Below, piece after piece: positions 247 through 45,621 of a DNA stretch of 50,418 nucleotides. The stretch comes from Thermoflexales bacterium (GTDB taxonomy: Bacteria; Chloroflexota; Anaerolineae; J036; Brachytrichaceae). A model generated the notes under the pieces. That model searched no databases, was not told the DNA's origin, and saw only the letters and a list, made by a program, of their open reading frames with translations. Made by a program: the position numbers and the translations under genes. Location of the stretch: positions 1 to 50,418 of the forward strand of contig JBDSIP010000131.1 of the NCBI GenBank assembly GCA_039917915.1, in the 5' to 3' direction. The first letter of the stretch is position 1; the number at the start of each line of letters is the position of its first letter.

Positions 247-3200
247 TCACCGCCCAACCATCGGCAGATACGCACGCGCGGCGGGGCCGCTGATCGCCTG
301 TCCGGTGATGTCGCTCAGCGCGCCCTCGGTCAACGCCAGGCTGCCCGCTGCGCCGGTTGACGCGAAGACCACCCGCGCGATCGGGCCTGTGCCCGACGGA
401 CCGGCCGGCGACGCGCCCAGGCTGAAGGCGGCCACGCTCAGCGCGCCCGCGTGGTCGTCCTCGGTCAGCGGGAAGAACGAGCGCCCGCTCTGGGTGACGA
501 ACGCGCCGAGATCGATCGAGGCCACGCTCAGCCCGGCCGGATAGGTCAGCCCAAGCTGGAAGGCGCCCAGGTTGAACACATCCAGGGCCCAGATCGTGGC
601 CGTGACCGGCCCGTCCGGCCCGCCTTCTACCACCAGCGACAGCGCGCTCAGCCCCGACGTCTGGGGGGCGCGCCGGAGCGCCCACAGATTGCAATCGGTG
701 TTCCAGCGCCCGGCGATGGTCTGCACGTCCTGAATGTCCACTCCCACCAAGGCATTCAGATCAAATCTGGCCTCATACAGCGGATTGCCCGGCTGGGCGC
801 TCCAACGGTAGGCGATCATCTGCACATCATCCACCTGGATGTAACCGTTGGGAAGGTTGCCCGGCCCGGTGTAGTCGCCGATGCAGCCCGGCACGGGGGT
901 GCCGGTCGCTGTCGGGGTCGGCGTATGGGTGCGGGTCGGGGTCGGCGTGCGCGTTGGGGTCGGTGTGCGTGTTGGGGTCGCGGTCGGCGTCTCCGTTGGG
1001 GTGTTGGTCGGCACCGGCGTCAGCGTCGGCGCGCGGGTTTGGGTGGGCGTCGAGGTCGGGCGCGGGTGCTGCGGACTAACGATGACGACCGTCCGGCTGT
1101 AGACATTGACATTGCCAAACGGATCGCGGGCAATGGCGACCAACTCGCGCACGCCGGTCGGCCCGTCGAGGGTCCAGAACCGCGCGCTGAAGGTGTCGCT
1201 CAGGCCTTGCGCGGCAATCAGGCTCTCGTCCGGTCCGGTGATGAGGCCCGAACCATCGACATCGAAGAACAGGCGGGTCTCGACCGCGCCGCTGTCATCG
1301 GTGACGACCAGCGTGACATCCAGGTTGTCGTAGAGGGCGACCGTCATGGCCTCGGTCGGCGTGAGGTAGTCCATGTACGGCCACGCATAGTCCTGCACGC
1401 CGATCTCGGGCGGGATCTCGAGCGTGATGATCCGGGTTGCCCCGAGCGCGAGCGTGCCGGTCGTCACCGTGCGGGTGAAGCCGCCCGGGCCATGCAAGGC
1501 GGCGTCGACGGTGAAGGGCTCGCCGCGGCCGGTCAGGTGGATGGTCAGCGACATGGGCCGATGCCCGTTGATGAAGGCGACCCCGCTGCCGGCGCCATCG
1601 CCGATCCAGTAGCTGTCCGGAATGGCATTCTTTGCGCCCTCCGCGTCGGAGTAACCGACCTGTCGCCCGAGCTCATCGGTAACATAGCCATCGACCGGAT
1701 CGAAGATCACCGATGACCACCAACCCTGGGCCTCCAGAGCACTCTGGAAGATGCCGCGGGCATACAGGAGGGCCTGCTGGACCGCGCCCGCCTGCTGCGG
1801 GTTCAGGTTCTGGTCGAAGACACCCTCCTCGTTGACCAGGAAGGCGCCCATCGATTGATAGGTCTGGGTATAGATCGCCGCCGAGGTCTTGTGTTTGCTG
1901 GTCGACACAAAGGCGGGATTGATGTTCGGAACGTTGAGTATGCCCAGCATCGCGGTCTGGGTGCGCATGTCGTACATCAGGGGCAGATGCTGGATGCCGA
2001 CAAACTCGGAGATCACGAACTTGGCATGGACCGGCTGCCCGCCGGCATTCATGAACGGACCCGTGGCGGAGCCAAACGAAACGGTGCCATCTCCGCGCTT
2101 GGCGAAGCGCATGTCGAAGCTCGCGTCGGCGGGTACGCTCTTCTGGGTCGCTGACCAGATTTCGCCGGATCCGGCGCAGCGGCCGACGAAGTCATTGAAG
2201 GGCAGGATGTCCGAGGCGGCGGCCTTGCCGGTCGTGCCACCGACGCCAACCGCATTCAGGACAAACTCGATCCGGGCCAGGATGATCTGCAACTGCTGAA
2301 GCGCATCGGGCGAGGCCACGGCGTTGATCCAATCGCGAACCTGCTGGACGCTTGCCAGGGTGTTGGACGTCATCGCCATGCAGCTTTCCGTCGGCGCGTT
2401 CCGCTGGCGCGCCCACAGCGAGGTGTCGGTCTGCGAGCCCGCGAAGACATACAGCTTTCCGGTCAGCGAGGCGGCGATGATGTTGGTCGACGAGGCCGGC
2501 GGCACGCCCTGTCCGGCATTGAGGTCCAGGAGCAGCCCATTGGCGTACTTCAGCCCATCGGTGATGGCCGCGAGGCCCTGTAGCGCGGCGCCGCTGTCGT
2601 CCGACCCGATGAAGGGGTAGGTGGCGAGCATGCTGTTCAGGGTCGGCACGTACCGGCTGATGAAGTCGCGGTTGCGCAGGACGGTGTCCGTCGCCAACGC
2701 GCCAGCGGTAATGGCGTACTCAGGCCCGGAGATCGAATTGGTCTCCTTGGTCTGCACATACAGATACTCGGCGTAAACCAGGCGCGAGAGCAGGAAGCGC
2801 ATGACGGCGTTGTCGCGCCAGTTGTCGATCATGCCGCTCCACGAGCGGGTGTCGCCCATGTTGGGCACCCCGGCCAGGATGAGGTTGCGGAATTTCGGCA
2901 GCGTCGACGGCCCGGGCGAGCCGTCCGAGAGGGGCTCGGGCGTGATGGGGCCGCCATAGGCGTCGCTCTGGACATAGGCCCGGGCGATGAGACCGCCCGC
3001 GTCATGGGCGATCACATCGACGGCGTCGAGGTCGGGCTCGCCGGGATGAAAGTACTTCCAGGCGTTGGCCGCCTTCTTGAGTTCGGCGCCGAGGTAGTCC
3101 AGGCCGCTGGTATACGTCGCGTCGACGATGGCGTCGGCCGTTTGGTCGCTGATGTAGCCGTCGATGGCGGCGTCGCGCGGCGCAGGCGGCAGGCGCCAAT

Positions 3201-6200
3201 CGTAGTTGACGATGAAGAGGTCGCGGTCCTTCTGATAGCCGAAGTTGGTCAGGGTCTGGACCAGATCATCGTACGTTCCGAGGATCGGATCGAGCGCGAG
3301 CGCATGGGGCGGCAAGCCGCGGACTCGGTACCAAACCGTGTCGCCCGGTTGCGGGCCGGTGCCGAGCAGGCCCGGGATGAGGACGACCGGCCGGCGCATC
3401 TGGGGGGCCGCCCGGACGATGGCTTCTGTCCCGGCGTCAGTTTTGATCCAGATCACGACCTCGCCATATTTGGTCAGGCGTTCACCAATCTGAAGGTCCT
3501 TGACCGCGCCGTTGACGCCGGTGATGACATCGCCCACGCCGATGACGCGATAAGTGTTGACCGTGGGGGTGACCGGCAGCGTGGGCGAAACGGTATAGGG
3601 CAGGATGATGTCGCTCTGGAAGACGGCCTGGCCTTTGACATCGTTGGCGACAAAGGCGATGTTCATCCGGCGCTTGTCGCCGAGCAGTTTGCGGTTGATG
3701 GCTACTCGCTTCTCGATGTCGTAGTGGAAGATGAAGCCGGAATCCTCGTTGGGATCGACGACGCCGTTACCATTCACATCGTTGTGCGCCTCGCCCGGAT
3801 CGAGTTTGCCATTGCAGGCCTGGCCGGTGATGCGATACAGCTCACGTCCGCCGGTGAGGCCGGGGATTGCGGCACGGTCGAGCGAGATAAAGGTGCCCTC
3901 GCCCGGATTGCCGCCGCCCGGTCCGCCGCCGACGCCGGAGGGACTGGCGAAATCACCGTAGAAGCTGACCGCTTCAGACTCGCCCGAGATGCTCGACCAG
4001 CGGCCCTTTTTTGCGAAGGCATCCCCGGCAATCGAGGTATTGCTGGTGAAGTTGGGGGCGTACATCGCAATCGCAGAGGAATCCAGGTCGCTCATCCGAA
4101 CAACGGCGTTGCCGTTGTTGGAGAGCACCGGTCGGAGCGATCCAACCTGCGCGCCGATGGATGCGTTGGACGGATATGCAGCCAGGCCGGCCAGGCTGGG
4201 ATTATTCTGCTGGAGATAGGGGTAGACGACCATCCCGTTGTCGTTGATGCTGCCATACGCGAGCATGGAGCGGGTTGATCCTCCCGGCAGGAGCGTGTAG
4301 AGCCCCTCACTCCCCGGAGAGCCGTTCCAAATCCTGTTGAAGCGGTACCCATTGGCATAGTCACGGGCGATGATCTCGTCCGAGTTGTTGATCTGTCCAC
4401 CGGGCCAGAAGTATGTGTAATAGCCCTCGGTGGGGGTGAGCTTGCGGACGTTGGTGTAATTGCTGCCGACGTAGATGGCGTCGGTGCTGCCCAGGCGCCC
4501 GGCAAAGGCCACATTACCCTTGTCGTTGATGGAAACTTCGTTGTAGATTTCCAGCATCCCCTGGTCGCCGGTCTGGGCGACCAGGTTGAAGGTGTAGCTT
4601 CCTTTCGGGGCCGGGACCGCGCATGCGGCCGGAGGCGTGGCGGTGCCTGTCGGTGTGGGGGTGGGAATGGGCGTTGCGGTCGGCAGTCCGGGAATGTTTG
4701 GAGAAATCGAAAACACGCCGCGGCCATGTGTGCCGACATGGAGTTTCTGTCCGAGCCAGACCATCTCATCGATGGCAACGTGGGCCGGGCCGTCCGCAGG
4801 AACACCCCAATTCGCGCCGCCGTCACTGCTGGCATACACGCCAACCTCGGTTCCGACATACATGTAGGCGGTGTCGTGCGGGTGTATCGCTAGAGTGCGC
4901 ACAGGTACGGCAGGAATGGAATTGCCGCCGGTTCCCGTCCATTGCGCCCAATTCGTTCCACCGTCAGTCGTGCGCCACAAGTTGTCGGGTGAGTACCCGC
5001 CATACATTGCATAAGCGACAGACGGACTGCTCGGGTCGAGGACAATGCGGGTGACCATTCGACTCGTTGGCAGATTTGGCGCAATAAAGAGCGTCCAGCC
5101 AGGCGTGGGTGACAAACCGTTCGTGGTCTTGTAGAGCGCCCCATTCGTATATCCCACCCAAATCACGCTGGAGTTGCCCGGCGCGACCGCGATTGCGCTG
5201 ATCAACGGCGTGAATGATCCGGTGTTGGCGATCGGCGGTTTGATCGCCACCCAGGATGGCCACTGCCATGCCGTGCGAACATCCGTGCTGCGCCAAAGCG
5301 ACGCGCCGCCGGCAAGCATCGTGTTCGAGTTATTTGGATCCAGGATGAAGGGCGCGATGAACGAGGCATTGTCGGTGCGCGAATCGGTAATTTCGCCGAT
5401 GCCGGGAACATTATCGCTTCTGTCAATCGTCGACGCCTCGCTCGCGCCGCCATCTTTTGAGCGCACGATCTTGAGGTTTACGTATTCGCCATAGACGTAA
5501 TTCGAATTGCCCGGGTCAACGGCGACATACCCGCCGTCGCCACCATAGTATTGCTTCCAGGCAAGCGGACCGATCTTGACGAGTGTGCCATTGTCCTGTG
5601 CGCCACCCACAAGGCGGGTTGTGCCGCCGCCGTTGCCCACGCCAATGCCATAGAACTGAGTGATTCCTGGACCGTCGACATGAGTGAAGCCGGCGTCCGT
5701 AAAGTGGGTGATCCCGAGGTTAATGCTGTTGATGTCGTCAACCCGAAAGAGCCCGCCGTCGTTGCCAAACCAAATCGTCTTGGTGATTGCGCCGTCGTAG
5801 TCGCGCGGCGAGAGGATGACATGGTGATCGGCGTGGGCGGTTGTGCCATACGTCTGATAGTTGCTCCAGTCGGTGATCTTGCTGATCCCGACCCCGCCGT
5901 TGGTGGTTCGATAGAGATCCACACCGCCGAGGAAAACGTCATTCGGGTTCGTTGGGTTTACCCAGACCGTATTGCCGTACCAGCCCTGCTCGCCGAGGTA
6001 GAACGTTCCGTTGTTGACCAGCACGAAGCTATAACCGCCGTCAACACTTTTGTACAACTGGCCCCTATTGTTCTGGGCAGAGGCATATGCGATCATCGGG
6101 TTGCTGGGCGAGAAAGCGACTTCGACGCGATCCCACGTTGCGCTGCTCCCGGTCTTGGCGGGTAAAGCCGGGGTGAAGACCGAAGAATTCCAGAACTCGC

Positions 6201-7152
6201 CCGAATCCGTCGAATACCAGGCGCCGCCATAGGCGCTGGCGATCGCGGCCGTAATCACCGTGGGATGGGTTTTGACATCAAGAACGGGACTTGTGATGAT
6301 CCGCCGCGACCAATTGACTCCTTCGTTCGTCGTGCGCCAGAGACCAGTGCTGGTCGCCGCAAGCAAAGACGAGCCATCAGCGGGCATCGCGAGCCGGTTG
6401 ACATAGGCAAAATCCGGCCGGGTGACGAAGCCAGTCCCTGGCATTTGCGCCCATGTTTGACCGGAGTCAATGGATTTGAAGATCCCGTCACCCTGTTGCG
6501 CGTCTGCATTGCCAAACCCTTCACCGGTACCGGCATAGACGACATTGCCCTGGGCGGGATCGGCGACCATGGCGTTCACCGCCATATTGGACAGAAAGTC
6601 GGCGACAGCCGCCCAGCTTCCTCCATTGTTGGTGCTGAGCCAGATGCCTCCGCCCGCTGCGCCAATTATCAGCCGATTGAGACTGGCCTGCGGAATGGCG
6701 ATTGACCGGATTCGCCCGCCGACGTTGTCCGGGCCCTCAAACGTCCAGGCGCCCGGGCTGATTCCGCCGACCTCGCGCGAAGGCGAAAGCAGCGTGCGCT
6801 GACGGGACATGTCGTAGAGAGCGTTCGCTTTGCCGGGCGCATCGGGCGGGATTTCGCCCTTTTCATTTTGCAGAGACAGGCGCCGATACGCAGCCGCGCG
6901 ATCCGGAAAGGTCGGCATTTCCCCCGCCTCGCCGCTCTCCGCGGGCTGGGCCTCGAACTCATCGGCCAGGATGCGCTGGATGAGCCGGGGCGTCTGGGTC
7001 GCTGCCGCGAGCGGGGACTCGGGCGGTCCCGCTGGTTGCGCCGCGGGCGACACCCCCACTGACGACGAGAACGACCCCGCCAGCAGGGCGGCTGCCAGTA
7101 GCGCGCGGACCGCGCCCGCGCCGGTCAGAAGAGAGGATGAAGTTGGTTTCAT
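247..7152 (-). CDS. Giant secreted multidomain protein A1 (2301 aa): BNR/Asp-box propeller, NxxGxxAF repeats, LCAT/PGAP1-like alpha/beta-hydrolase-like domain, PT linker, dockerin-like and cohesin-like domains
   Basis: ATG start with a signal-peptide-like N-terminus ([27 protein letters not shown]). About 11 Asp-box motifs ([48 protein letters not shown] and others). [25 protein letters not shown] repeats. [11 protein letters not shown]...YDWRLPP...[14 protein letters not shown]...GVPNMGD lipase-like motifs. Uninterrupted 6.9-kb ORF with a paralog at 20050-26892. Confidence 0.9.
250..690 (-). other. Cohesin-like C-terminal domain of A1, ending in the [12 protein letters not shown] tail (tail = 250-273)
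   Basis: Pattern [37 protein letters not shown]...[13 protein letters not shown] resembles the cohesin fold signature (V.V...L.G....L.YDP..L....G.F......G.G.LA...F). The last eight codons read gcg tat ctg ccg atg gtt ggg cgg on the minus strand. Confidence 0.6.
691..888 (-). other. Dockerin-like (EF-hand-type) module of A1
   Basis: GCIGDY...[13 protein letters not shown]...[24 protein letters not shown]. Two segments resemble dockerin Ca-binding loop plus helix (D.N..G.VD..D). The paralog reads [20 protein letters not shown]. Confidence 0.55.
889..1074 (-). repeat. Pro/Thr-rich linker (low-complexity coding repeat) in A1
   Basis: 62 aa: [62 protein letters not shown]. The plus strand shows reiterated ggtcggggt/ggtcggcgt units. 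Confidence 0.9.
2992..3009 (-). other. Nucleophile-elbow motif AHDAGG (Asp where lipase-type hydrolases have Ser) in A1
   Basis: The minus strand reads gcc cat gac gcg ggc ggt (A-H-D-A-G-G) within [16 protein letters not shown]. This aligns to the canonical V.LVGHSMGGL.AR.Y. The Asp codon is at 3001-3003. Confidence 0.7.
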
Positions 7153-7241: not shown

Positions 7242-7255
7242 GGTGGGTGTTTTCG

Positions 7256-26000: not shown

Positions 26001-26892
26001 AGAGGGCATCCAGCGTCTGCGTTCCGGGCAGCCGGTTGACCCAGGTCGATCCCTCGTCGGCGCTGTAATAGAGCCCGTTGCCGGCGCTGGGGTAGCGCCC
26101 GTCGCCGGCCGCCGACAGCAGAACGGCGCCATCGGCCGAAACGGCGAGGCGATTCACGTAGGGCATCGGCGAAGGTCCGCTCTGTGACGTGCTCGATCGT
26201 TGTGTCCAGGATTGCCCGGAGTCGTACGACACAAAGATCCCGTCACCGCGCAGCGCGTCGGCGTTGTTGAATCCCTCGCCGGTACCGGCATAAATGATGC
26301 TCCCGGTGACCGGATTGGCCGCCATCGCGTTGACGGCCAGATTGGGCAGGCTGTCATTGGCGGGGTGCCAGCCCGTCGTGTCGCTGACCCACACGCCTCC
26401 CCCCACGCCGCCGATCAGGAGCCAGTCCGGATTGTCGGGCGGAATGACGATCGACCGAATGCGGCCGCCGACATTCCTTGGGCCCTCAGAGGTCCAGGCC
26501 CCGGGAGAAATTCCGCCGACGGCAGGCGCCGGCGAAAGCCGGGTCCGGTCGCGCGCCATTGCAAACAGCGAGTTGGCCTTTGACAGCGCCTCGGGCGGGA
26601 TCTCGCCCTTTTCGTCCTGCAGTTGAAGGCGGCGGAACGCCGCGGCGAGATCCGGAAATGTCGCCAGCTCGCCGGCCTCGCCGCTCTCCACGGCCAGCGC
26701 CTCAAACTCGTCCGCCAAGATGCGCTGGATGAGCCGGGGCGTCTCCGTCATCGCCGCAATGGGCGACCCGGGGGTGGGCGATTCCGGCCCCACCGGAACC
26801 GACGATGACAAGGATGTCGCCATGAGCGCCGCGGCCAGCAGCGCGCGCGCGGCGCCCGGGCCGGTCAGGAGGTGATACGAGGATCGTTTCAT
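20050..26892 (-). CDS. Giant secreted multidomain protein A2 (2280 aa), paralog of A1
   Basis: ATG start with signal-peptide-like N-terminus. Same domain order as A1. The C-terminal two-thirds are highly similar by eye, and the N-terminal propeller is much more diverged. Ends in [12 protein letters not shown] (20053-20076). Confidence 0.9.
20053..20484 (-). other. Cohesin-like C-terminal domain of A2 with YLP tail
   Basis: [37 protein letters not shown]...[13 protein letters not shown]...[10 protein letters not shown]. Confidence 0.6.
20485..20667 (-). other. Dockerin-like module of A2
   Basis: [24 protein letters not shown]...[25 protein letters not shown]. Confidence 0.55.
20668..20853 (-). 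repeat. Pro/Thr-rich linker in A2
   Basis: [62 protein letters not shown] (62 aa). Confidence 0.9.
22774..22791 (-). other. Nucleophile-elbow motif AHDAGG in A2
   Basis: The minus strand reads gcc cac gac gcg ggc ggc within [20 protein letters not shown]. The Asp codon is at 22783-22785. Confidence 0.7.
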
Positions 26893-35900: not shown

Positions 35901-38900
35901 TGCCGGGCTGGAGTTCGGTGATCGTATAGGTGCCCGTGACCAGGCCAGTGAAGGCGTACCGGCCGCGGTTGTCCGTCTGCGTTGTGCGTGACCCAACCGA
36001 GCCCGTGACCGTCTGCCAGGTCAGGGTGATGCCAATGCTGTTGAGGCCGCTCTCGCCGTTGGGGTAGTCGGCATAACGCTGAAAGATGCCATCGTTGGTG
36101 GTGTCGCGGTAGACGTATCCGCTCAGGGCGGGCGGGTATTCGCCAAAATTGTAAAGCCCGCCCAGCGTGTCGGGGATAAGCGCGATGTCGCCAAAGCGGT
36201 TGACCCCGATTCGGGGGTTCGGGTAGCCGTCCTCCATCGGACCATCGTTGTAGCCAGGCGGCTGGAGCTCGATCACGCTGTAGACGCCGGGGCGGAGGGG
36301 CGTGAATACGAAACGCGCCCCGATGTAGGAGTAGTCCTCGATGGTTCCCGTCACTGTCGTCGCCGTCATCCACACCGATTGGCCGGCGTCGTTGGTCCCA
36401 GTCAGAATGATGGTCACGCCGAATATTGGCGGATCGCAACTGGCCGGGCACACGCCGGAATACGAAAGCCTTTGATTGTTGTCGGCATCCACGAACACGA
36501 AACCTTCGATGCTGGATGGGGCAATCTCGGCAAACGAATTGCCCGCTGCAGCCGCCAGTTGGCCTGACTGCGTTGTGGGGGTGAAGAAGATGGCGCTGAT
36601 CGCGTCAACGCCAATGGGCCCGGTAATACCGCCACCCGCGCCGACCTGTTCGTAGCCATCAAGCAGGTAGGCGGGCCCCTGCTCAATCAGCGCATACGTG
36701 CCCGTGGGCGGCGCGCTGAACGAGAAGTGGCCCAGGGCGTCTGTCGTCGTTGTCATCCACAGGCCCGCCCCAAACTCGGTCGTGCCCGCGAGCCACACCG
36801 TGACGCCGCCGATGCCCTCTTCATCCTCGTACAGGCCATTCGCGTCGTTGTCGACGAAGACGAGGCCTGACAGGCCGGGCAGCAACTCACCGAACAGCGC
36901 GTCGGCGTAGGTCGCTACGCCGGTCAAGACAATGCCGGTCACGACGTCATTGCCAACGATTCCCCCATCGGTCACGCTGTCGAGGCCGTCCGCCCAGGCC
37001 ATCGGCTGCGCCTCGGTCAATGTGTAGACACCCGGCGCCACGCTGAAAAAGCTGGCGTAGCCGCTGTAGTCGGTCAGCAGCGTGGTCGAGACGAACGCGC
37101 CGCGATACGTCACGCCCGTCAATTCAACCGCTCCATCCTCAATCCCCACTTCGGTGTAATCGTAGGCGCCGTTGCCGTTCAGGTCGGCAAAGATCTGGGC
37201 GATCACGTTTCTCGGGCGCAGTTCACCAAAGAGATTTCCAGTGACGGGCACGCCATAGGTCACCAGGATTCCGGAGATCACGTCGAAGGTCGGGACGGCG
37301 CCGCCGATGACGCCGCCGCCCGGGCCGACGGCTTCCTCGCCATCAAAGTAGTTGTTCGGCTGCGTTTGGGTGAGGGTGTAGACTCCGGGCGGCACCGGGA
37401 AAAAGGCGAACCGGCCATAGAAATCCGTATTGGCCGTCATCGATACCGGCTGGCCGGTGGTGGTCGTCCCAGCCAGAACCATCGCCACGGAGAAAGCGCC
37501 GTTGTCTATCTGCGGATCGTAGGCGCCATTGCCGTCCTCATCGAGGTAAACCGTGCCCGATACGACCGTAAATGGATACTCGCCGAAGGTGTAGGAAAGG
37601 GCGGGCGTCGCGGCGACAAGGCTGACGGTCATCGCATCATTACCCAGGACGCCGCCGGCCGTGCCGAGCGCATCGACGCCATCATCAAAGGCGGCAGGCT
37701 GGAATTCGCGCAGGATGAAGGTCCCCGTCGCAAGCGCGCCAAAGGCAAAACTGCCGTCTGAAGCGGTGCTTGAGGTGACAATCAGCCCGCTTCCCAGGTC
37801 CGACAAGGTGATTGTCACGCCCGGCACACCCGCTTCGATGCCCGGTCCCCAAGCGCCATCGCGATTGCTGTCGGCGTAGACCATGCCAGAAACGCTCAAC
37901 TCGTAAGGGCTTTGCGTTTCATATGCGCCGATGTCACAGATCGCGAGTCCGTCGCCGTTGCCGTCAGCCGGGCGAGGCTGATTGCGCTGGTCGATGGCCG
38001 GGCACGTCACGCCGCCCGCATCCATGGCGCGGCTTCCATACACCAGCGGAACGACTTGGGTGCCCGCCATTGAGATCACCGCGCCGACGCCCGGTTTGAC
38101 ATTCACGACGTCCCCGGCGCCGCCCGAGTATTCGTTTCTGGCGACGCACTGGGTGATATCGCCGATGAGCGAATTGCCCTGCGACACCAGGCTGGCGTTG
38201 CAATACGCGTCCGGGCCGGCCCCGACGGCCGTGTTGGCGTCAATCAACGTCCCGCGGAGTGTGATGCCGGGGTATTCGGCGTATGCGCCTCCGCCCGTCC
38301 CGCCGCTGCGATTGCGCGCGATGGTATCCCAACTGAACTTGACGTTGCTGGCGTAGTAGGCATATACGCCACCGCCCGAGCTACTGGCGTAGTTGCCGGC
38401 GATGGTGGTGCTGGTAATGCCCCCGCTCACGTTGAAGAGATACAGGCCGCCGCCGTTGCTCGCCGACCGGTTGCCGGCGAAGGCGCTTCGATTGACACTG
38501 ACGAAGGCGTTCTGGGCCAATCCGCCGCCCCCGTTGCTTTGGGCCGTGTTATTGCTGATCAGCGTGCCGCTGATGAAAAGCCGGCCACCCGTGTGATATA
38601 GACCGCCACCGTTCCAACCGGTGTTGTTGTCGATCACGACATCGTCCAGCGACAACAGATACGCGCCGTTGAAGTAGATGCCCCCATAACCATTGCTGGC
38701 CTGGCAGGCGCCATCACGGATGTCAACCTGCGACACGAACACCCGCGTCTGGGTGTTCCGAATGTCCATCCCGCAGCCTGTGCTGACATTGCCGCCGCGG
38801 CGAATTGTGAACGCGGACAGGGTAGCCGTCATGGGGGCATTGGTGACGGCGGGGAAGATTTCGAAAACACGATCGGTAAGGTTGCCATCGATCAGGGTCA

Positions 38901-39234
38901 GGCCGCGCCCGGCGCCCGCGACGGTGATCGTGTCGCGCAGGTCGAGGTCACCGGTGAATGCGCTGTTCTCGAATGGGCCCGTGCGAGTGAGGACAAAAGT
39001 CCCCGCGGGCAGGCTGACGGTGTCCGGACCCGCGTGGGCATTGGCCTCCTGGATGGCGGCCCGCAGGCTGCAGGTGCCCGCCGTGGTGGCGCACACCCCG
39101 TTGCCGACCAGGGCGTCGGGGAGATCGGTCGTGTCGTCGACCGGGTAGGTGTCGGCCTGCGCCCCGCGATCCAGCGTCTGGCATGCGATCAGAGCGCCGA
39201 TGCCGGCGATGAGGAGACGGATCGTGGTTCGCAT
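26977..39234 (-). CDS. Giant secreted adhesin-like protein B2 (~4085 aa), paralog of B1
   Basis: The supplied ORF runs to 39267 from a GTG. The ATG at 39234 (MRTTIRLLIAGIGALIAC...AQA) aligns exactly with the B1 start context (gcatggcggg.cgttttc). The upstream GTG lies inside the conserved leader hairpin. Architecture and repeat count match B1. Ends in AYLPRVLR-COOH (26980-27003). Confidence 0.9.
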   Translation of the reverse strand: MRTTIRLLIAGIGALIACQTLDRGAQADTYPVDDTTDLPDALVGNGVCATTAGTCSLRAAIQEANAHAGPDTVSLPAGTFVLTRTGPFENSAFTGDLDLRDTITVAGAGRGLTLIDGNLTDRVFEIFPAVTNAPMTATLSAFTIRRGGNVSTGCGMDIRNTQTRVFVSQVDIRDGACQASNGYGGIYFNGAYLLSLDDVVIDNNTGWNGGGLYHTGGRLFISGTLISNNTAQSNGGGGLAQNAFVSVNRSAFAGNRSASNGGGLYLFNVSGGITSTTIAGNYASSSGGGVYAYYASNVKFSWDTIARNRSGGTGGGAYAEYPGITLRGTLIDANTAVGAGPDAYCNASLVSQGNSLIGDITQCVARNEYSGGAGDVVNVKPGVGAVISMAGTQVVPLVYGSRAMDAGGVTCPAIDQRNQPRPADGNGDGLAICDIGAYETQSPYELSVSGMVYADSNRDGAWGPGIEAGVPGVTITLSDLGSGLIVTSSTASDGSFAFGALATGTFILREFQPAAFDDGVDALGTAGGVLGNDAMTVSLVAATPALSYTFGEYPFTVVSGTVYLDEDGNGAYDPQIDNGAFSVAMVLAGTTTTGQPVSMTANTDFYGRFAFFPVPPGVYTLTQTQPNNYFDGEEAVGPGGGVIGGAVPTFDVISGILVTYGVPVTGNLFGELRPRNVIAQIFADLNGNGAYDYTEVGIEDGAVELTGVTYRGAFVSTTLLTDYSGYASFFSVAPGVYTLTEAQPMAWADGLDSVTDGGIVGNDVVTGIVLTGVATYADALFGELLPGLSGLVFVDNDANGLYEDEEGIGGVTVWLAGTTEFGAGLWMTTTTDALGHFSFSAPPTGTYALIEQGPAYLLDGYEQVGAGGGITGPIGVDAISAIFFTPTTQSGQLAAAAGNSFAEIAPSSIEGFVFVDADNNQRLSYSGVCPASCDPPIFGVTIILTGTNDAGQSVWMTATTVTGTIEDYSYIGARFVFTPLRPGVYSVIELQPPGYNDGPMEDGYPNPRIGVNRFGDIALIPDTLGGLYNFGEYPPALSGYVYRDTTNDGIFQRYADYPNGESGLNSIGITLTWQTVTGSVGSRTTQTDNRGRYAFTGLVTGTYTITELQPGSYVDGRESIPELPAAVSNDIYARIAYTPGLPGGGFDFGELYPSSFSVIVFHDRNANGANDNSDFGINNITITLTGTTDVGSPVGPIVLNSGLYGYGVTFNNLGPGTYSVIETQPPGGYVDGPSIIGNNFGGIPGVNRIDAITIITQNSYAYGYGFTEQKSGISGFLYQDVNNNRLHDVNENYFPSLVTVALSSTDGGGVFSTTQTGYDGFYLFAGIPAGTYQIASNQLASLLDSFDQPGTIDGLASGVSGTLGSDLISGIVYPALGVGVNYNFADLPVSRIRGTVYQDLNANGAYDSANQPYETGIRYVTVTLTGTDDVGASVSLTRITDISGIFDFNTLRPGLYTLAELQPFDYTDGREQSGYPTPALIANDRFQGITITTAGSDFYGYYFGELLNGLYGYVFRDTHNDGVFSTYYDSGLYSEQVILSGTTVFGQYVYSPTTTDFNGRFVFNRLVSGTYALIEPQPASRLDGIDTPGTLGGITSTLGNGDDLIAGIVITHASYGRDYLFGELDGAQLSGYVFLDLNSDGTKTFSEPGVPSATLTLSGTNDRNQPVVVVTYTNASGLFNFVRLRPGTYTLSETQPSGYLDGLDRNPSGVLSVINDTFPGILVLPGQFYGNYQFGESGGFLSGYVYGDRNNDGVKGAGESGINNVTVYLTGTRSDTGATVGRVAQTDSAGVYQFVNVLNGVYTLTEIQPAAWFDGRESLGTGAGGVISGNDRFISITMTGPGGSNYNFGEIGPSTFAGNVFFDLYDNGVRDPIDPGIGGATLNLRGTDYLSAPIWMTATTSSLGAYSFTNVRAGIYTVTEIQPADYLDGKDKVGCCGGGSLGNDAIYSVTLKGEDYVANYDFGERISGLSGYVYRDTNNDGLRANASGVGNASITLYGLTSLGVLMTRTATTDGYGFYYFNGLLTGTYSLSETQPAALLDGLDTPGNLGGESTQDDTISNITFQPGQVGSEYNFGEFYGASVGGMVFWDINNDGQLQGGEAGIVGATVALSGTNDLGLPLRITTTTGGDGSFGFAALRPGNYSLVEVQPGNYTDGIDTPGNRGGNADGFDTINGIGLTPESAGSGYLFGERQVGLTGYVYRDLNNDGARQIATEFGIPNTLVELDGTTSMGGPVYRNAVTNQFGFYAFGDLVAGTYRLSAYQPSGFLDGKEGLGTLGGMQGQDTFTITYGTGQYGSEYDFGELPPATLAGEVYLDIDGSGSRQQNEPGLPGVLIGLTGADDRGASVSRASQTNGAGAYTFGSLRPGAYTLAEIQPAGYTDGQDTLGNLGGSFIPSDTFAGIVLGVAGNGYNYNFGETQTGLGGFVYVDADVDGEHDAGETTLFGVTLILTGAPAGGDPITRTAQTDGFGFYRFGDLEPGVYRIREIQPPNYLDGADNAGPMGGSVGPLGQDYIDVAYPGGSFGQNNNFGEYLPNTLRGYVFFDVIDNGVYERPYCLDAPFCQTANHSPEVGIGGGIKIVLTGRNDLSQTVLATDTTNSAGQFSFPLLRPGSYTLTEIHRDVDVDGLDTSVAAPEAIVTNDQVRAISLTIGQTKGAVFGEKPSITGYVYRDDSDNGQREPSLPTLCNSPELGISGVSLQLTGVDVYNTNVTLGAASFSPVYPVSNHCYDGFYYWGGLVTGTYAVHEFQPAGYLDGQETIGTGGGLTTTNDIISRIVFTPGVVITGYNFGEQRNIIAGNVYLDTNGNGLRDGPDRSLDTPATIVLSGFNNLGQPVVMTQTSAGSYQFSGLRPGTYTLTEIQPAGYSDGQEQLGVGAGGALGANDQFVNLVLAPGAYANDYNFGELINANLGGRVAYVWYPTQNAPYGIGLVSETVRMVGVPNAGGSIAMTTTTDASGYYRFLNLPPGAYTVTHVSFPLGYRDFGATVCSAGAVVQGRSIGGIALQYGTNLPYCDFLLGPTLTGYVFADDNANGAKNPGEGGIGGAAVSLHGVLSNGSQTTRSLWTDGSGFFAFGGLLTGTYRLVEAQPQDFYDGNDVAGSLGGLTGTAALSALPAWSTPITNDIIAGIVYTPNALGQNHLFAELRPARLRGNVYYDKDDTGTFTPPFAGLDEIIYPVRVTLEGTNDLGEPVYMTNTGASGSFDFTGLRPGIYSLTETQPPDYTDGIENVGSKGGVLGYDQFRRINLTWGDDAVDYNFGERKFGIVGTVFADRNNNGIFESPFGPDSGIGGVLVWLSGTTAIGDPVVLTFTTGGGGYFNFPDLQPGVYTLSETQPAGYADGLDALGTLGGLLSNDRITGIVIGEHSFGQAYTFGELPPSTLSGYVYVDANNDGYRGGYGEPGIAGVTITLQGQNTLGDPVLMLTRTDPLGYYIFRDIPNGGYSLLESQPNFVDGIDRAGTGAGGVALNDLIIGIGFNMIIDAYDYNFGERPSALSGHVFWDENGNGTREISETGLSPATLKLRGFDFNSQPVNKTTRTTFEGYYAFEALPGTYWIEEVQPFGYLNGLALPGTLGGVISGANVITSIVIGIGGAGSDYDFAEVAPSAVDLAGAMGLDLAFLQSASMQTDLVNKAGVGSPLPGAATLAGFPTNGPTFAYLGTGNMLFADQPNSGPNTFGLGDYARLALTFTVPTTATCLSIDFAFFSEEFPEFVGSQFNDTFDAFVDGQPIARDQNGNRISINSVFGAAPGNAAGTTYDAATPRLRARAELTPGATSVITFFVTDVSDTAYDSAVFIDRFTFGRPEGEACVPGANLPVGVVLTKTVGPWPTAGNPVCALTDALTITQPTEIAYCYRATNTGEYTLTTHTLVDSAFGPLFSQMPLELLPGETFEFITSRVETQTAVSVGTWTGAYSGTFSAASSDVTTVTMTGPVITPTPAPGSATMMILPGSAQTYFTQPITVAVMISGVSNLGGYEVALRFDPAQVTVTHVSQGSFLTTTGRGLVLVPTRFGPDYARFGASTVGAAAGPSGSGALAWVRIAPRESGTATLTLSNTLATNVAGLSIDLTAFGGQLVVIHPGAAYLPRVLR
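26980..27429 (-). other. Cohesin-like C-terminal domain of B2 with YLP tail
   Basis: FTQPITVAVMISGVSNLGGYEVALRFDPAQVTVTHVSQGSFL...GPSGSGALAWVRIAPRESGTATLTL...AAYLPRVLR. Confidence 0.65.
28420..37899 (-). repeat. Array of tandem SdrD-B/Cna-B-like domains in B2 (collinear with the 27 units of B1)
   Basis: Runs from LSVSGMVYADSNRDG to ...DYDFAEVAPSAVD. The unit-by-unit order matches B1, for example the CPASCDPPI unit, the CCGGG unit and the RDVDVDG unit. Confidence 0.8.
37915..39153 (-). other. Right-handed parallel beta-helix head of B2
   Basis: GNGVCATTAGTCSLRAAIQEANAHAGPDTVSLPAGTFVL plus GGG(L/V)Y turns, ending PAIDQRNQPRPADGNGDGLAICDIGAYE. Confidence 0.7.
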
Positions 39235-39264
39235 GGCGGGACGTTTTCCTTGACTGAAATGCCA

Positions 39265-39291
39265 CACCGGAGGGCGGCGATCCCTCCGGTG
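39265..39291 (-). promoter_or_regulatory. Conserved 5'-leader hairpin upstream of B2
   Basis: caccggaggg-cggcgat-ccctccggtg: a 10-bp stem and 7-nt loop, 31-57 nt upstream of the ATG at 39234. Confidence 0.55.
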
Positions 39292-40817: not shown

Positions 40818-40821
40818 TCAC

Positions 40822-40922: not shown

Positions 40923-40927
40923 GCCGC

Positions 40928-43165
40928 TTACCGCCTTACGGTCGGAAGATACGCACGCAATGCGCACGTCGACGGGCTGAATTCCGAGCCGTAATCATAG
41001 GTTGAGAACAGAAATCCCGCCGTGCGCTTGTAGGCGGCGTAACATCTCGGGCTGCCCCCTTCGGACAGGCTGATCTTCCAGACGCCGGCGCTGTTGGTCT
41101 GCGCCTCGCCCTTGTAATTCTGGCCCTCGCCATACCCGCTTGGGTCAAGGCCATCGCTGAAGACGTACACCTTTGTCGTGTTGGCAAAGCCGGGCCCGGA
41201 CACCGACGCGTCGCTGGTCCCGGTTAGGGTCACAAACCCGCCCGCGCGGACCATCGAGGTGATCACCGGCCAGCCCGCGGTCGGGATGTTGCCGGAGGAT
41301 GTCTCGGCGGCCTGATCGATGCCCAGCCCGCCGTTTGCGTATAGGGCCGTCGCTATCCAGTTGTTATTGAGCGCGCCGCCATACTCCCGGATCCCGTCGA
41401 GCGCATTCGAGTGGATGGTCGACGTCAGAATGGTGTTGAAGTCGGTGTTTGAACCGCTGAAGGCGATGCCATCCCTGCTATTTCCGAAAATGAGGTTGTT
41501 GGGCCCGATCTGGTTCCTCGTCGCGCCACTTGCCAGCATCACCCCGGTGGAGTGATTCGTCGCGATCCAGTTTCCGCCAGCCACCGTGTTGTGATGCGCG
41601 CCGCTCGATAAAACGACGCCACGCTGGTTTGGCAGCGCCAGGTTCGCCAGCGCGCTATTGAGGCCGATGTCATTGTAGACAACGGTGTTGCTCATCGTCG
41701 CTGCCCCGTCGATGACGATGCCGTCTCCCGTGTTTCCGCCAATCACGTTGATTTGGGCCGGCAAGTTCCCGATCGTATTGCTGTACGAGCCTTCGCTGAT
41801 GATGATGCCGTTGCCACCGTTCGGGCGTATTGCGCCCGCGGGCGTATTTCCGATCCAGTTCCGGGTGATCGTCGTATTCCGGGCGCCCGCCAGCCAGACG
41901 CCACTCTGGCCATTGCCGGCGATGATGTTCCCGCGTTCAAAGGCGATGATCAGCACAAACACGCCGCCGATCCAGTTGCTGGCCCCATTGGAGATCAAGA
42001 TACCGGAGATGCCATTGTTGGCCATCGCCGGATCTTGTGCGCCAATCGTGTTCCCCAGAATCCCGTTGAGGTCCGAGTCGTAGACGTTGATTCCGTTGTT
42101 GGTATTTGCGTAGATCGTATTGCCGTCGCCATCCGTTGCGCCTCCGATCACATTCAAGAACGCGCCATTGCTCAGCCAGACCCCGGTCAGGTTGCCGATG
42201 ATCAGATTGGCCGCGATCGTGTTGCCCGAAGTGCTGTTGATGTTGTTGACGCCATTGCCCTGCAGCAGCACGCCGATTTGGGCATTGTTCGCGACCACAT
42301 TGTTCCGGATGATATTTCGGCGCGAGCCGTCAGCGCCGCTCGCGCTGAACGAAATGCCGTGGCGGTTGGGCAGCGTCTCGCCCGTGTAGCTTCCCCCGAT
42401 TTTGGCGACCGTGGTGCCGATCCAGTTTCCGCTTGCCGCGCCGGCTGGATCGATTCCGATTTTGGCGTCATCCGCGCCAACGGCGAAGATCCCATCAGCC
42501 ACATGGCAGCCGATGACGTTTCCATATATCCAGATCGACGTGCTGCCGCTCGCGCTCACCTCCTCCTGGAGCCAGATCCCGACACTCCCTTTGCGGGTTG
42601 CTCCAGCCGTCAGACAGGTCGTGGCCGATGGGTTGGCCACGCCCAGATAATTGTGATCGATCTGATTTCCGGCGCCTGACTTGACCATGATGTCGCTGCG
42701 ATTGCCATTGATCAGGGTCAGGCCGCTGATGCGGGAACCGCTCGTGTCCACCGTGAAGATGTCGTCCCCGCTGCCCGCCAAACCCGCCCCATTGATTCGC
42801 GGAACACCCGATGCCCCCTGAATGATCGTGCCGGTCATGTTCACCGTCGGCAAGGGGGAGCTCAGGTTGATCTGGCTGATCGCCGGCAGAAACTGGATCG
42901 TCTGGCTGATCCCGATCGTTGCGACCTTGTTTATCGCCCCACGCAGGGTGCAATCGTTGGCTGCCCCCGAACAGGTCGTCACGTTGGCGTCGTCGCTTCG
43001 ATCAACGAACAGGATTGCGGCCGGCGCGAGTGGCCCGGACACGAGCGCGCCAGGTTCGATAAAATGTGGCAGGGCGGCCATGGCAATGGTCGCTGGCGCA
43101 CTGGCGCCAAGCAAGAGAATACCAACCGTGGCGAACCAGCGAAGCAGCGGCTTTTTGTGTGGCAT
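40928..43165 (-). CDS. Secreted right-handed parallel beta-helix repeat protein C1 (745 aa)
   Basis: ATG start with signal peptide MPHKKPLLRWFATVGILLLGASAPATIAMA. It has a CSGAANDCTLRGAINK motif and many reiterated N.I.GN...G(I/V) beta-helix turns. The conserved ~150-aa C-terminal domain ends in AYLPTVRR-COOH (40931-40954). Confidence 0.85.
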   Translation of the reverse strand: MPHKKPLLRWFATVGILLLGASAPATIAMAALPHFIEPGALVSGPLAPAAILFVDRSDDANVTTCSGAANDCTLRGAINKVATIGISQTIQFLPAISQINLSSPLPTVNMTGTIIQGASGVPRINGAGLAGSGDDIFTVDTSGSRISGLTLINGNRSDIMVKSGAGNQIDHNYLGVANPSATTCLTAGATRKGSVGIWLQEEVSASGSTSIWIYGNVIGCHVADGIFAVGADDAKIGIDPAGAASGNWIGTTVAKIGGSYTGETLPNRHGISFSASGADGSRRNIIRNNVVANNAQIGVLLQGNGVNNINSTSGNTIAANLIIGNLTGVWLSNGAFLNVIGGATDGDGNTIYANTNNGINVYDSDLNGILGNTIGAQDPAMANNGISGILISNGASNWIGGVFVLIIAFERGNIIAGNGQSGVWLAGARNTTITRNWIGNTPAGAIRPNGGNGIIISEGSYSNTIGNLPAQINVIGGNTGDGIVIDGAATMSNTVVYNDIGLNSALANLALPNQRGVVLSSGAHHNTVAGGNWIATNHSTGVMLASGATRNQIGPNNLIFGNSRDGIAFSGSNTDFNTILTSTIHSNALDGIREYGGALNNNWIATALYANGGLGIDQAAETSSGNIPTAGWPVITSMVRAGGFVTLTGTSDASVSGPGFANTTKVYVFSDGLDPSGYGEGQNYKGEAQTNSAGVWKISLSEGGSPRCYAAYKRTAGFLFSTYDYGSEFSPSTCALRAYLPTVRR

Positions 43166-43281: not shown

Positions 43282-45621
43282 TCACCGTCTTACGATCGGC
43301 AGATACCCTCGCGGCACGCAGGTCGACGGACTGAACTCCGAGCCATAGTCATAGGTCGAGAACAGAAATCCCGCCGTGCGCTTGTAGGCGGCGTAGCACC
43401 TTGGTGCTCCCCCTTCGGACAGAGTGATCCTCCACACACCGGCGCTGTTGGTCTGCGCCTCGCCCTTGTAATTCTGGCCCTCGCCATGCCCGCTTGGGTC
43501 AAGGCCATCGCTGAAGACGTAGACCTTTGTCGTGTTGGCAAAGCCGGGCCCGGACACCGACGCGTCGCTGGTCCCGGTTAGGGTCACAAACCCGCCCGCG
43601 CGGACCACCGAGGTGATCACCGGCCAGCCTGCAGTCGGGATGTTGCCGGAGGATGTCTCGGCGGCCTGATCGATGCCCAGCCCGCCGTTTGCGTATAGGG
43701 CCGTCGCCACCCAGGCGTTGTTGGTCGCGCCCGCGTATTCACGGATGCCGTCGCCCCGGTTCGAGTAGATCGTCGACGTCAGGACCATATTGAACGTGGT
43801 TGCCGGGTCAGAGATGGCGATCCCATCAGCGTCGTTGTTGAAAATGAGGTTGAGAGGGCCGATCTTGTTCTTCACCGCGCCACTCCGCAGCCACACACCG
43901 GCATTCCGATTCTCGGCGATCCAGTTCGAGGCCGCCACCGTGTTGTCGTGCGCGTCGCCGCGGATGACGATGCCGTAATCGTTGGGCAGCGCCAGTGTGA
44001 CCGCCGCTTGCGGCGCGCCGGGGCTGCGTGGCGCGGACGGGCCGTTTAGCAGGCTGAGCGCGCTGTTGACTCCAATGTCGTTGAAGCGCACAGCGTTGCT
44101 CATGGTTGCGCTTCCGTCGATGACGACCCCGTCGCCGTTGTTCCCGCCGATCACATTGAGTTGGGAAAGGACACCGGTCCCAATCGTGTTGCTGTAGGCG
44201 CCGTTGTCGATCAGAACGCCGTTCAACTGGTTGGGGCGCGGCGTGCCGTCGGGCGTGTTTCCGATCCAGTTTCGCGACACCGTCGTGCCGTGCGCGCCAC
44301 CGGTAATCCACACGCCATTCTGGCCGTTTCCTGCGATGATATTCCCACGCTCAAAGGGAAATATCAGCACCAGCACGCCGCCGATCCAATTGCTTGCGCC
44401 GTTGCGGACGTAGACGCCACTGCCGGAATTGGGAGCCATGGTGGGATCACTTGCGCCAATTGTGTTGCCAAGAATGCCATTGAAATCCGAGTCAGTGATG
44501 CTGATCCCATTCCCCTTGTTCGCATAGATGCGGTTGCCATCGCCCTCCTGGTCGCCGCCGATTGTGTTCACGAAGGCGCCATCCTGCAAACTGATGCCGC
44601 CAACGGGCGACCCCAGACCGTTGTGGACGACGGTGTTGCTGACAATTCTGTTTCCAGACGTGCTGTTGATGTTGTTCGTCCCTGTGCCGGTCAGCAGGAT
44701 GCCGTACTGGTCGTTGTTGGCGATGACATTGTTCCGGATCTCGTTTCCGTTCGCCCCATTCCCGCTAGACGCTAAAAACCAGATGCCGATGAGATTGGAA
44801 AGGACGGTTCCGGTGGCGGCACCGCCTACTGCGAAGGGCGTGGTCCCGATCCAATTCCCGTCCGCGGCGCCAGCGGGTGTTTTGCCAATCACCGCATCAT
44901 CGGCTGAACCGACGATGCCGGAGAAGGCGTGGCAGCCGATTGTGTTTCCATGTATCCAAACCGATGTCCCGCCGGTCGCGCTCACTACCGCCGCGAGTGT
45001 GACGCCATACCCGCTTTCGCGCGTCGCGGCTCCGGCCACACAGGCCGTCGCCGCAGGCGATAGCACCCCGATGTGGTTGCCGTCGATCTGATGATCCCGT
45101 CCGCCCAATACTTGAATGTCCGCCGATGTCGGGGAACCGTTGATCATCGTCAGGCCGCTGATGCGCGCGCCGCTTGTCCGGATCGAAAGCATGGCGCCGG
45201 CTGCAATCCCCGCCCCGTTGATGCGCGGCACACCTGACCCGCCGATGATCGATGTATTCGTCGTGGCAATGAGCGGCAGCGGTGCGGTCAGATTGATCTG
45301 CGTGATCTCCGGCGCGAACTGGATCTCCTGCCCCACGCCCGCGGCGTTGATCTTGTTGATCGCTCCCCGCAACGTGCAATCATTTTCCGCGGCCGTGCAG
45401 GCCGTCACACTTGCATCGTCGCCGCGGTCGACTGTCAGCACCCCTCCCAGAGGCGCATGCGGCAGCAGCGGCAGGGTTATCGCGCCCTCCACGGGCGCCG
45501 CTGCGGCAACGGGCGCGGCCGGCGCCATGCCGAGCACGGCGACAACGTAGACGAACGAGACCAGGATGGAAAGGGGGTCGGTCATGGGCGGGAATGGTAC
45601 CCGAGGCGAGGCATTGTTCAT
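43282..45621 (-). CDS. Secreted right-handed parallel beta-helix repeat protein C2 (~779 aa), paralog of C1
   Basis: The ATG at 45621 shares its A with the upstream TGA stop (TGATG). A GTG at 45624 is the alternative start. It has a CTAAENDCTLRGAINK motif and beta-helix turns. The C-terminal domain is nearly identical to C1 and ends in GYLPIVRR-COOH (43285-43308). Confidence 0.85.
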   Translation of the reverse strand: MNNASPRVPFPPMTDPLSILVSFVYVVAVLGMAPAAPVAAAAPVEGAITLPLLPHAPLGGVLTVDRGDDASVTACTAAENDCTLRGAINKINAAGVGQEIQFAPEITQINLTAPLPLIATTNTSIIGGSGVPRINGAGIAAGAMLSIRTSGARISGLTMINGSPTSADIQVLGGRDHQIDGNHIGVLSPAATACVAGAATRESGYGVTLAAVVSATGGTSVWIHGNTIGCHAFSGIVGSADDAVIGKTPAGAADGNWIGTTPFAVGGAATGTVLSNLIGIWFLASSGNGANGNEIRNNVIANNDQYGILLTGTGTNNINSTSGNRIVSNTVVHNGLGSPVGGISLQDGAFVNTIGGDQEGDGNRIYANKGNGISITDSDFNGILGNTIGASDPTMAPNSGSGVYVRNGASNWIGGVLVLIFPFERGNIIAGNGQNGVWITGGAHGTTVSRNWIGNTPDGTPRPNQLNGVLIDNGAYSNTIGTGVLSQLNVIGGNNGDGVVIDGSATMSNAVRFNDIGVNSALSLLNGPSAPRSPGAPQAAVTLALPNDYGIVIRGDAHDNTVAASNWIAENRNAGVWLRSGAVKNKIGPLNLIFNNDADGIAISDPATTFNMVLTSTIYSNRGDGIREYAGATNNAWVATALYANGGLGIDQAAETSSGNIPTAGWPVITSVVRAGGFVTLTGTSDASVSGPGFANTTKVYVFSDGLDPSGHGEGQNYKGEAQTNSAGVWRITLSEGGAPRCYAAYKRTAGFLFSTYDYGSEFSPSTCVPRGYLPIVRR

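Follow-up and report, generated by a model that had tools for sequence, protein, structure and literature searches.

Six large secreted proteins of a Thermoflexales bacterium end in divergent forms of the YLP-box putative sorting motif

We analyzed a stretch of 50,418 bp (63.7% G+C) from a Thermoflexales bacterium within the phylum Chloroflexota (positions 1 to 50,418 of contig JBDSIP010000131.1, assembly GCA_039917915.1), hereafter referred to as the window. The window comprises six large open reading frames (ORFs) on its minus strand, all of which end in the sequence Y-L-P-x-V-x-R followed by a stop codon. These genes form three pairs of paralogs, denoted A1/A2, B1/B2, and C1/C2, and they and their C-terminal tails are located as follows:

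247..7152, minus strand: A1 gene, 2301 aa; signal peptide, Sortilin/BNR-like repeats, dockerin-like repeat pair, cohesin-like domain, tail
250..273, minus strand: A1 tail, AYLPMVGR; stop codon at 247-249
7256..19540, minus strand: B1 gene, 4094 aa; signal peptide, CSLREA-like N-terminus, choice-of-anchor Q and L domains, 24 SdrD-B repeats, SpaA-like domains, DUF7507, cohesin-like domain, tail
7259..7282, minus strand: B1 tail, AYLPTVLR; stop codon at 7256-7258
20050..26892, minus strand: A2 gene, 2280 aa; paralog of A1
20053..20076, minus strand: A2 tail, MYLPVVGR
26977..39267, minus strand: B2 gene, about 4085-4096 aa (4096 as listed); paralog of B1
26980..27003, minus strand: B2 tail, AYLPRVLR
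40928..43165, minus strand: C1 gene, 745 aa; signal peptide, right-handed beta-helix, beta-sandwich ending ..SEFSPSTC, tail
40931..40954, minus strand: C1 tail, AYLPTVRR
43282..45624, minus strand: C2 gene, 767-780 aa (780 as listed); paralog of C1
43285..43308, minus strand: C2 tail, GYLPIVRR

The initial annotation of this DNA had drawn attention to a tail shared by six secreted proteins, and this observation is real at the positions given above. The pattern YLP.V.R occurs six times in a six-frame translation of the whole window, and every occurrence is the C-terminus of A1, B1, A2, B2, C1, or C2 and nothing else. A stop codon directly follows the final Arg in all six tails, all six proteins have signal-peptide-like N-termini, and all six tails conform to a motif defined as a Y-L-P core, any residue, a hydrophobic residue, any residue, and a basic residue close to the C-terminus. 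Non-tailed controls within the window comprise four other genes only. The start of B2 is likely a Met that is positioned 11 codons inside the listed ORF, and between the listed GTG start of C2 and the stop codon of the S58 peptidase gene upstream there is a 4-nt overlap. The match of the cohesin model PF00963 to B1 is weak (17.1 bits, E = 0.0067, with a gathering score of 24.1 bits); among homologs of these proteins, NCBI names P0125 as a cohesin domain protein, and both PF00404 and PF00963 match P0129.

The tail had been presented as a six-fold recurrence. Six copies do exist, but they were generated by duplication. A 19.7-kb tandem segmental duplication (within 247-39267; 71-86% nucleotide identity) yielded A1-B1 and A2-B2, and a 2.35-kb tandem duplication yielded C1 and C2, the 3' ends of which (40921-41220 and 43275-43574) share 89% nucleotide identity. 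In addition, the cohesin-like C-terminal domain is common to the A and B proteins (~31% identity). The six tails therefore represent three paralog pairs, and only two to three independent contexts are available within the window. Likewise, Tyr-Leu-Pro is encoded by TAT-CTK-CCG in all six tails, and the use of TAT for Tyr in six of six would have a probability of about 0.003 if the copies were independent, but they comprise three paralog pairs. In a wider sample of tails (see below), TAT was used in 28 of 54 compared to 21.8 expected from the Tyr codon usage of the same genes, and the codons of the tail vary synonymously. This indicates that the constraint acts at the level of the protein, and a nucleotide-level element that is translated by chance was dropped from consideration on these grounds.

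The tail had also been put forward as a candidate uncharacterised tag, but it is already catalogued. Two NCBIfam models, NF050076 (sort_motif_YLP; 11 positions, cutoff of 15 bits) and NF053834 (ultrashort_CTERM; 10 positions, cutoff of 10 bits), are both described as YLP-box putative sorting motif-containing protein. The label assigned by the NCBI curators is the same as the reading proposed for the window, that of a sorting or attachment tag, with the function itself being presumed in both cases. Canonical tails from homologs ([VIL]YLPLVxR, e.g., KVYLPLVMR) scored 14.2-19.4 bits on these models and passed the cutoffs. We scanned the window tails as isolated peptides (21 residues in the case of A1) and reported matches at E<=10. 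On NF050076 the A1 tail scored 12.1-12.9 bits and missed the cutoff of 15, but its 12.2 bits on NF053834 exceeded the cutoff of 10. The A2 tail scored 13.4 bits on NF050076, again below the cutoff, with no match to NF053834 reported, and at the same threshold neither model reported a match to the isolated tails of B1, B2, C1, or C2. No sorting-signal model was listed for the full-length window proteins at E<=0.01, in a search where HMMER filters lose weak, short matches; despite these filters, NF050076 matched 13 of 57 full-length tailed proteins that were sampled from other genomes. The NCBI pipeline probably leaves the six window proteins without a label for the motif.

The window tails differ from canonical tails in having M, T, V, R, or I after Pro, rather than L, and A, M, or G before Tyr, rather than V, I, or L. 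Homologs of C1 exhibit a graded series of endings at the same position, immediately following ..SEFS..C.., that comprises VYLPLVRR, FLPLIRR, FLPLVVR, FLPTVLK, MLPTVLR, AYLPRILR, AYVPMVLR, and the AYLPTVRR of the window. The residue following Pro also varies freely (LYVPTVRR, IYLPTVHRQ, IYLPMVQR, IYLPRVGR) within a family of PorU-like C25 peptidases that itself carries the box, and these are the same variants that are seen in the window. Together, these series indicate that the window tails belong to the YLP-box motif. The C-terminus of B1 is 82-87% identical to those of P0124-P0128, which end in the AYLPRVLR of B2. One of these, the closest annotated homolog (85% identity to the B1 C-terminus), is from a metagenome-assembled genome and is annotated as 'cohesin domain-containing protein, partial [Thermoflexales bacterium]', in line with a Thermoflexales relative as the most likely source of the window. 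Homologs can also have the tail exchanged for another sorting signal or lack it altogether: P0094, an acidobacterial homolog of C1, is annotated as an IPTL-CTERM sorting-domain protein, and some C1 homologs end just after ..TSEFS.. without a tail. Collectively, the YLP-box is a catalogued but functionally orphan sorting motif, and the window tails are sub-threshold members of it.

Beta-helix homologs of C1 from outside the Chloroflexota (P0055, P0065, P0066, P0071, P0084, P0092, P0106, P0076, and P0117) exhibit other recurrent C-terminal patterns, including ..[FY][FY]R[AL]xx(x)P (e.g., QRFYRAVVEP and FFRLQAP) and, in a third group, KARLWPKPLSY. Such endings could represent additional terminal signals, or else the final strands of a domain at the terminus.

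The distribution of the canonical tail was evaluated by back-translating YLPLVxR-stop to TAYCTNCCNCTNGTNNNNCGNTRA and scanning viral contigs, as a control, and genome contigs, with the genome sample comprising 120 stretches among the matches listed, 62 of them from Chloroflexota. None of the 42 matches in viral contigs closed an ORF of at least 150 aa (longest, 110 aa). Among the matches listed from genome contigs, 52 of 65 in Chloroflexota closed an ORF of at least 150 aa, with eight more cut by the edge of the locus, compared to six of 58 in other phyla. Matches were detected in Anaerolineae, Thermoflexales, Caldilineaceae, Chloroflexaceae, Roseiflexus, Oscillochloris, Herpetosiphonaceae, Ardenticatenaceae, and Leptofilum. 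Two of the six long-ORF matches outside of the Chloroflexota are chance occurrences in cytoplasmic proteins (a citrate synthase and an AraC-like regulator), one is on a 58% G+C contig that was binned as Gracilibacteria and is surely mis-binned, and two are on short contigs for which the binning is doubtful. The canonical tail therefore closes long ORFs almost only in Chloroflexota. Nevertheless, the sixth match, at locus L054, is on a genuine Patescibacteria contig (37.6% G+C, with the housekeeping genes glyA, prs, tmk, and thyX nearby) that encodes two tandem, small, secreted paralogs (62-745 and 996-1652) ending in IYLPLVTR and IFLPLIQG, which indicates that the YLP-box is not confined to Chloroflexota.

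Within the Chloroflexota loci and the window (232,677 residues), the strict motif occurred 60 times in the last 14 residues of a protein and once internally; about eight of the 60 terminal tails fall outside of selection by the scan pattern. A hydrophobic, signal-like N-terminus was identified, by a crude score, in 33 of 41 tailed ORFs compared to 49 of 177 others (Fisher p = 8e-10), which bears out the association with secreted proteins that had been proposed from the window alone. The 57 sampled tailed proteins comprise 74 Pfam families, all of them typical of extracellular proteins, and the families that precede the tail include Peptidase_C25, S8, M23, DUF11, CARDB, Beta_helix, LVIVD, FG-GAP, and SdrD_B. 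NCBIfam models add choice-of-anchor B, Q, and T domains to this list, and B1 has L and Q domains. Choice-of-anchor domains are named for their occurrence with differing C-terminal anchors. A general claim that tails are carried on Pro/Thr-rich linkers was rejected, with only two of 57 proteins meeting a strict criterion.

Among the sampled loci, a family of small proteins (about 90-150 aa) ends in ..GGFWGG......Y.VYLPLVLR (L207, L236, L265, L183, L200, L211, L052, and L154). Histidine kinases (L257 and similar) match the box by chance through a G2-box that ends in GxGSxFxVYLPL, and genome-wide counts should exclude them.

An AlphaFold2 model of C1 (47 homologs) had a mean predicted local distance difference test score (pLDDT) of 89.8 and comprised a right-handed beta-helix followed by a C-terminal beta-sandwich. 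The tail (738-745) is part of a segment that was modeled as coil (residues 735-745), the last five residues of which (741-745) averaged a pLDDT of 47. A fold search with C1 recovered only generic polysaccharide-active beta-helix enzymes and tailspikes, which was uninformative with respect to the tail. The model of the A1 C-terminus was poor (mean pLDDT of 56), with a beta-sandwich at 60-83 and a tail at <50, and is weak evidence. The tail is thus not a buried terminal strand in the C1 model, and probably not in the A proteins, given the poor model. Together with the 74 Pfam families among 57 proteins, coil after both the C1 and A-type domains upholds the earlier view of the tail as a portable module rather than the last strand of one fold.

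To free the position of the box from the bias that is introduced by selecting for a stop codon, metagenome contigs were scanned for VYLPLVxR without requiring a stop. The number of codons between Arg and the next in-frame stop was 0 in 19 matches, 1 in 10, 2 in 15, 3 in 15, and 4 in 5, with only sporadic matches beyond 4. Among credible C-terminal boxes, 16 of 54 ended at Arg and 38 of 54 were extended by 1-4 residues (RN, RNY, RNYR, RNYGP), yielding an extended consensus of Y-R-V-Y-L-P-L-V-[LVM]-R-(N). Tails of the C25 peptidase family run up to about 10 residues past the box. Moreover, about a dozen credible boxes were N-terminal-proximal or internal, and Pfam confirmed domains downstream of the box for most of these. 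A signal peptide, linker, and box precede a CAP domain in L229 (two tandem paralogs) and L220; the box precedes a GH39-like domain in L276 and is near the N-terminus of Rhs toxins in L179 (2180 aa) and L279. In other cases the box separates the core of the protein from a single small beta-sandwich at the C-terminus (PPC in L189 and L230, CARDB in L281, and LTD in L272). The box in L172 is followed by a classical hydrophobic helix and RR anchor. Internal boxes were selected by an exact match to VYLPLVxR, and some may be recent gene fusions. Variable extensions and internal boxes indicate that the motif cannot be recognized by way of a free carboxylate at a fixed register. The earlier proposal of a carboxylate-dependent reader, which was based on the protein simply ending at the motif, is consequently not supported for the family.

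The consensus of the YLP-box is Y-R-[VIL]-Y-L-P-L-[VI]-x-[RK], in most cases with zero to four further residues behind it, and the box is carried by Sec-exported, mostly very large surface proteins of Chloroflexota. As in the NCBIfam description of the motif, the window tails combine a Y-L-P core with a branched hydrophobic residue at the second position past Pro, a basic residue, and a location at the extreme C-terminus of signal-peptide-bearing Chloroflexota surface proteins. They resemble LPXTG signals that are recognized by sortase in having an L-P-x-[T/V] core and, in B1 and B2, cargo with SdrD-B and SpaA-like repeats. However, they lack the Gly, the hydrophobic helix, and the basic cytoplasmic tail of LPXTG signals, with the protein ending three residues after the core, and only one weak repeat match was detected among sortase-related NCBIfam models in the window proteins. 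The PEP-CTERM and IPTL-CTERM signals of exosortase and archaeosortase systems occupy an interchangeable position on the same cargo (IPTL-CTERM on P0094, and the choice-of-anchor domains of B1), but the window tails lack their transmembrane helix and Arg cluster. No NCBIfam match to PEP-CTERM, IPTL-CTERM, GlyGly-CTERM, or MYXO-CTERM models was identified in the window proteins, and no helix follows the motif. The tail is accordingly distinct from both the LPXTG and PEP-CTERM classes, as had been suggested. Short exposed peptides of strand length that are read by a partner, such as the TonB box or PDZ ligands, provide a further analogy for the YLP-box; a difference is that its register relative to the free carboxylate is not conserved.

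The C-terminal domain (CTD) signal in type IX secretion systems (T9SS) also lacks a membrane helix, is carried by Sec-exported cargo, and has a C25 peptidase, PorU, that carries the signal (PMC5445135, PMC4560394), which is paralleled by the PorU-like C25 peptidases that carry the YLP-box. At the cell surface, PorU serves the T9SS as its C-terminal signal peptidase and sortase. It is a component of this system and at the same time one of its cargos, which remains uncleaved and keeps its signal (PMC5445135; PMC4560394). The T9SS CTD differs in that it folds into a beta-sandwich of about 80 residues and belongs to diderm Bacteroidota, whereas the YLP-box comprises eight residues that are predicted as coil in C1. 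No Pfam or NCBIfam match to a T9SS CTD was identified in the window proteins.

Among the 57 sampled tailed proteins, four or five belong to the PorU-like C25 family, a single orthologous family of 920-1070 aa (L111, L121, L133, and L136, the last from a Thermoflexales metagenome-assembled genome). Its members exhibit a signal peptide, a PorU-like region, a Peptidase_C25 domain, the segment ..LLGDP.., 8-15 residues, and then the box, and neither the catalytic His nor the catalytic Cys of clan CD varies in the family alignment. Scores against the PorU model NF033707 were 137-245 bits over positions 10-734 of 1095, compared to an equivalog cutoff of 420 bits, so that by sequence the family would be classified as PorU-like homologs and not as equivalogs. 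A profile search of 1.84 billion representatives recovered 4,944 proteins at E<=1e-30, and the family includes P0130-P0287. A YLP-type box ends at least 103 of the best 150 of these 4,944 (pairwise identity <=50%), with the rest being mostly fragments or having more degenerate boxes.

The position, portability, and taxonomic restriction of the motif, together with its link to signal-like N-termini, the absence of predicted structure in the tail, and the swapping of the box for other sorting signals in homologs, lead us to infer that the box sorts or anchors proteins and that something in the cell envelope reads it. Specifically, the six tails are probably lineage-specific, divergent YLP-box tails that act as a motif for surface sorting or retention after export. 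Our confidence pertains to this general reading and to no particular reader of the motif, and it leaves room for readers that we have not thought of. Under such a scheme, a protein would cross the membrane via its N-terminal signal peptide, and its tail would remain an exposed, unstructured peptide beyond the last folded domain. A conserved envelope factor would then read the tail as an extended peptide, rather than via a free carboxylate, and would retain or process the protein at the cell surface.

Several observations weigh against this reading. Five of the six window tails fall under both curated NCBIfam cutoffs, and the window tails score only 1.9-7.5 bits (6.2 bits for B1) on our own profile of 54 canonical tails. 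Literature searches did not recover a paper or experiment on the motif, and a 2023 preprint on myxosortase does not mention it. The genome sample comprised the first 120 stretches among the matches listed, and the score used to identify signal peptides was crude. Boxes that follow the signal peptide or are located between domains would not be foreseen by a purely C-terminal sorting-signal model. Finally, when 366 ORFs of the window and of 62 loci were clustered all against all, the only recurrent neighbors were generic two-component regulators, and a conserved neighboring gene was rejected as the sorting enzyme on this basis. Within the window, a TPR membrane protein (46676-49075), an S58 (DmpA-like) peptidase (45621-46679), C2, and C1 are in an operon-like order, with 4-nt overlaps that suggest that the TPR protein, S58 peptidase, and C2 genes form an operon. 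The order of S58 and a C-type gene is kept in a relative with 61% identity (L283) but not at 42% identity (L284), and this loss of synteny led us to reject the S58 peptidase as a partner.

How the box might be read is a more tentative matter. A possible version is non-covalent docking, in which the box would be a short strand left exposed to bind a common, hypothetical receptor of the S-layer, sheath, or wall, much as a TonB box or PDZ ligand does, and would remain uncleaved at either end of the protein or between domains. Docking would tolerate the range of positions at which boxes are found (after the signal peptide in L229 and L220, before a GH39-like domain in L276, near the N-terminus of Rhs toxins in L179 and L279, and between domains in L189, L230, L281, and L272), although these internal examples were chosen by exact VYLPLVxR and some are possibly recent gene fusions. 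It would also tolerate C-terminal extensions of 0 to 4 residues, and sometimes longer, and is consistent with a tail that is unstructured in AlphaFold2 models and with clustering of 62 loci that yielded no adjacent enzyme gene. Moreover, the presence in L172 of both a box and a classical helix-RR anchor suggests that the two are not redundant. On the other hand, a peptide of eight residues built around a conserved Pro would be unusually short as the anchor of proteins that reach 2300-4100 aa. The central Pro would fit the groove of an enzyme, as in LPXTG, at least as well as it would fit strand pairing.

An alternative, which is likewise tentative and only marginally less likely by our estimate, is sortase-like processing, in which a PorU-like C25 surface peptidase would cleave at or near the box and transfer the new C-terminus to a polymer of the wall or sheath. 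By analogy, the enzyme would carry the box itself, as PorU retains its own CTD. A large and uniformly YLP-tailed C25 family with a PorU-like region and invariant His and Cys argues for this version, as do internal boxes that precede one small beta-sandwich (PPC, CARDB, or LTD) in the manner of a cleavable CTD. Yet the family scores far under 420 bits and lacks the final third of PorU, and it may simply be conserved cargo, given that DUF11, DUF7507, and CARDB were sampled about as often. Furthermore, cleavage at N-terminal-proximal boxes would attach only the linker and release the domain, and there is no hydrophobic helix to hold a substrate near a membrane enzyme. We weakly prefer processing by the C25 family as the concrete version of the surface-sorting reading, with docking being almost equally likely.

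It is improbable that the tail is instead read through its free carboxylate by a tail-specific (PDZ-type) protease or receptor, for which it would serve as a degron or tag at the C-terminus. All six window proteins and 16 of the 54 C-terminal examples from the unbiased scan end exactly at Arg, as such a reader would demand, but 38 of the 54 have 1-4 extra residues, C25-family tails extend up to about 10 residues, and credible boxes occur hundreds of residues away from the C-terminus. Least probable of all is that the tail is no signal, and is either a structural remnant of each paralog family or a translated nucleotide element (terminator or repeat): the three duplication pairs and the shared TAT-CTK-CCG codons of the window are in keeping with this, but 74 unrelated Pfam families across dozens of Chloroflexota genomes, synonymous codon variation (TAT in 28 of 54, 21.8 expected), internal positions that are almost free of the motif, and AlphaFold2 models that leave the tail outside of the preceding domains are not, and we consider the genome scan, portability, and codon results to have already refuted it.

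Other features of the locus concern the domains that precede the tails. The A proteins (C-termini at 250-880 and 20053-20680) have a dockerin-like repeat pair followed by a cohesin-like domain, and the B proteins (7259-7740 and 26980-27460) have a cohesin-like domain without the dockerin-like pair. The dockerin-like pair in A and the cohesin-like domain in B suggest that the products of adjacent A and B genes might pair through a cohesin-dockerin contact. The last strand of the cohesin-like domain of B is apparently missing from that of A. Downstream of the A genes, a 38-nt palindromic element, GTCATCCCACGCGAACTCCCCGCCTGCGCGGGGATGAC, that resembles repetitive extragenic palindromic (REP) sequences is present in three copies (22-59, 177-214, and 19799-19836), where none are expected by chance.

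Sludge, sediments, hot springs, and soils all harbor abundant Chloroflexota, and the architecture of the envelope of these bacteria is still debated. We know of no account of how they keep very large adhesin-like and enzymatic proteins on their surface. The result for the window itself is ordinary, in that it comprises genes for surface proteins with a catalogued tag. However, the YLP-box marks many large surface proteins per genome and has no known reader, which makes it an orphan sorting signal, and the inclusion of sub-threshold variants in the motif implies that current models undercount it. The C25 family provides a concrete and testable candidate partner, and a small genome that has the box, as at least one of the Patescibacteria does, would bring phylogenetic profiling within reach. 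We therefore put forward, as a speculative proposal, that the YLP-box may be the signal of an undescribed surface-sorting system in Chloroflexota and at least some Patescibacteria, with the box-carrying PorU-like C25 peptidase as its enzyme and with a signal that has been reduced to eight residues and can also be N-terminal-proximal or internal. If true, the YLP-box and C25 system would be a monoderm counterpart of the attachment step of the T9SS, without the T9SS.

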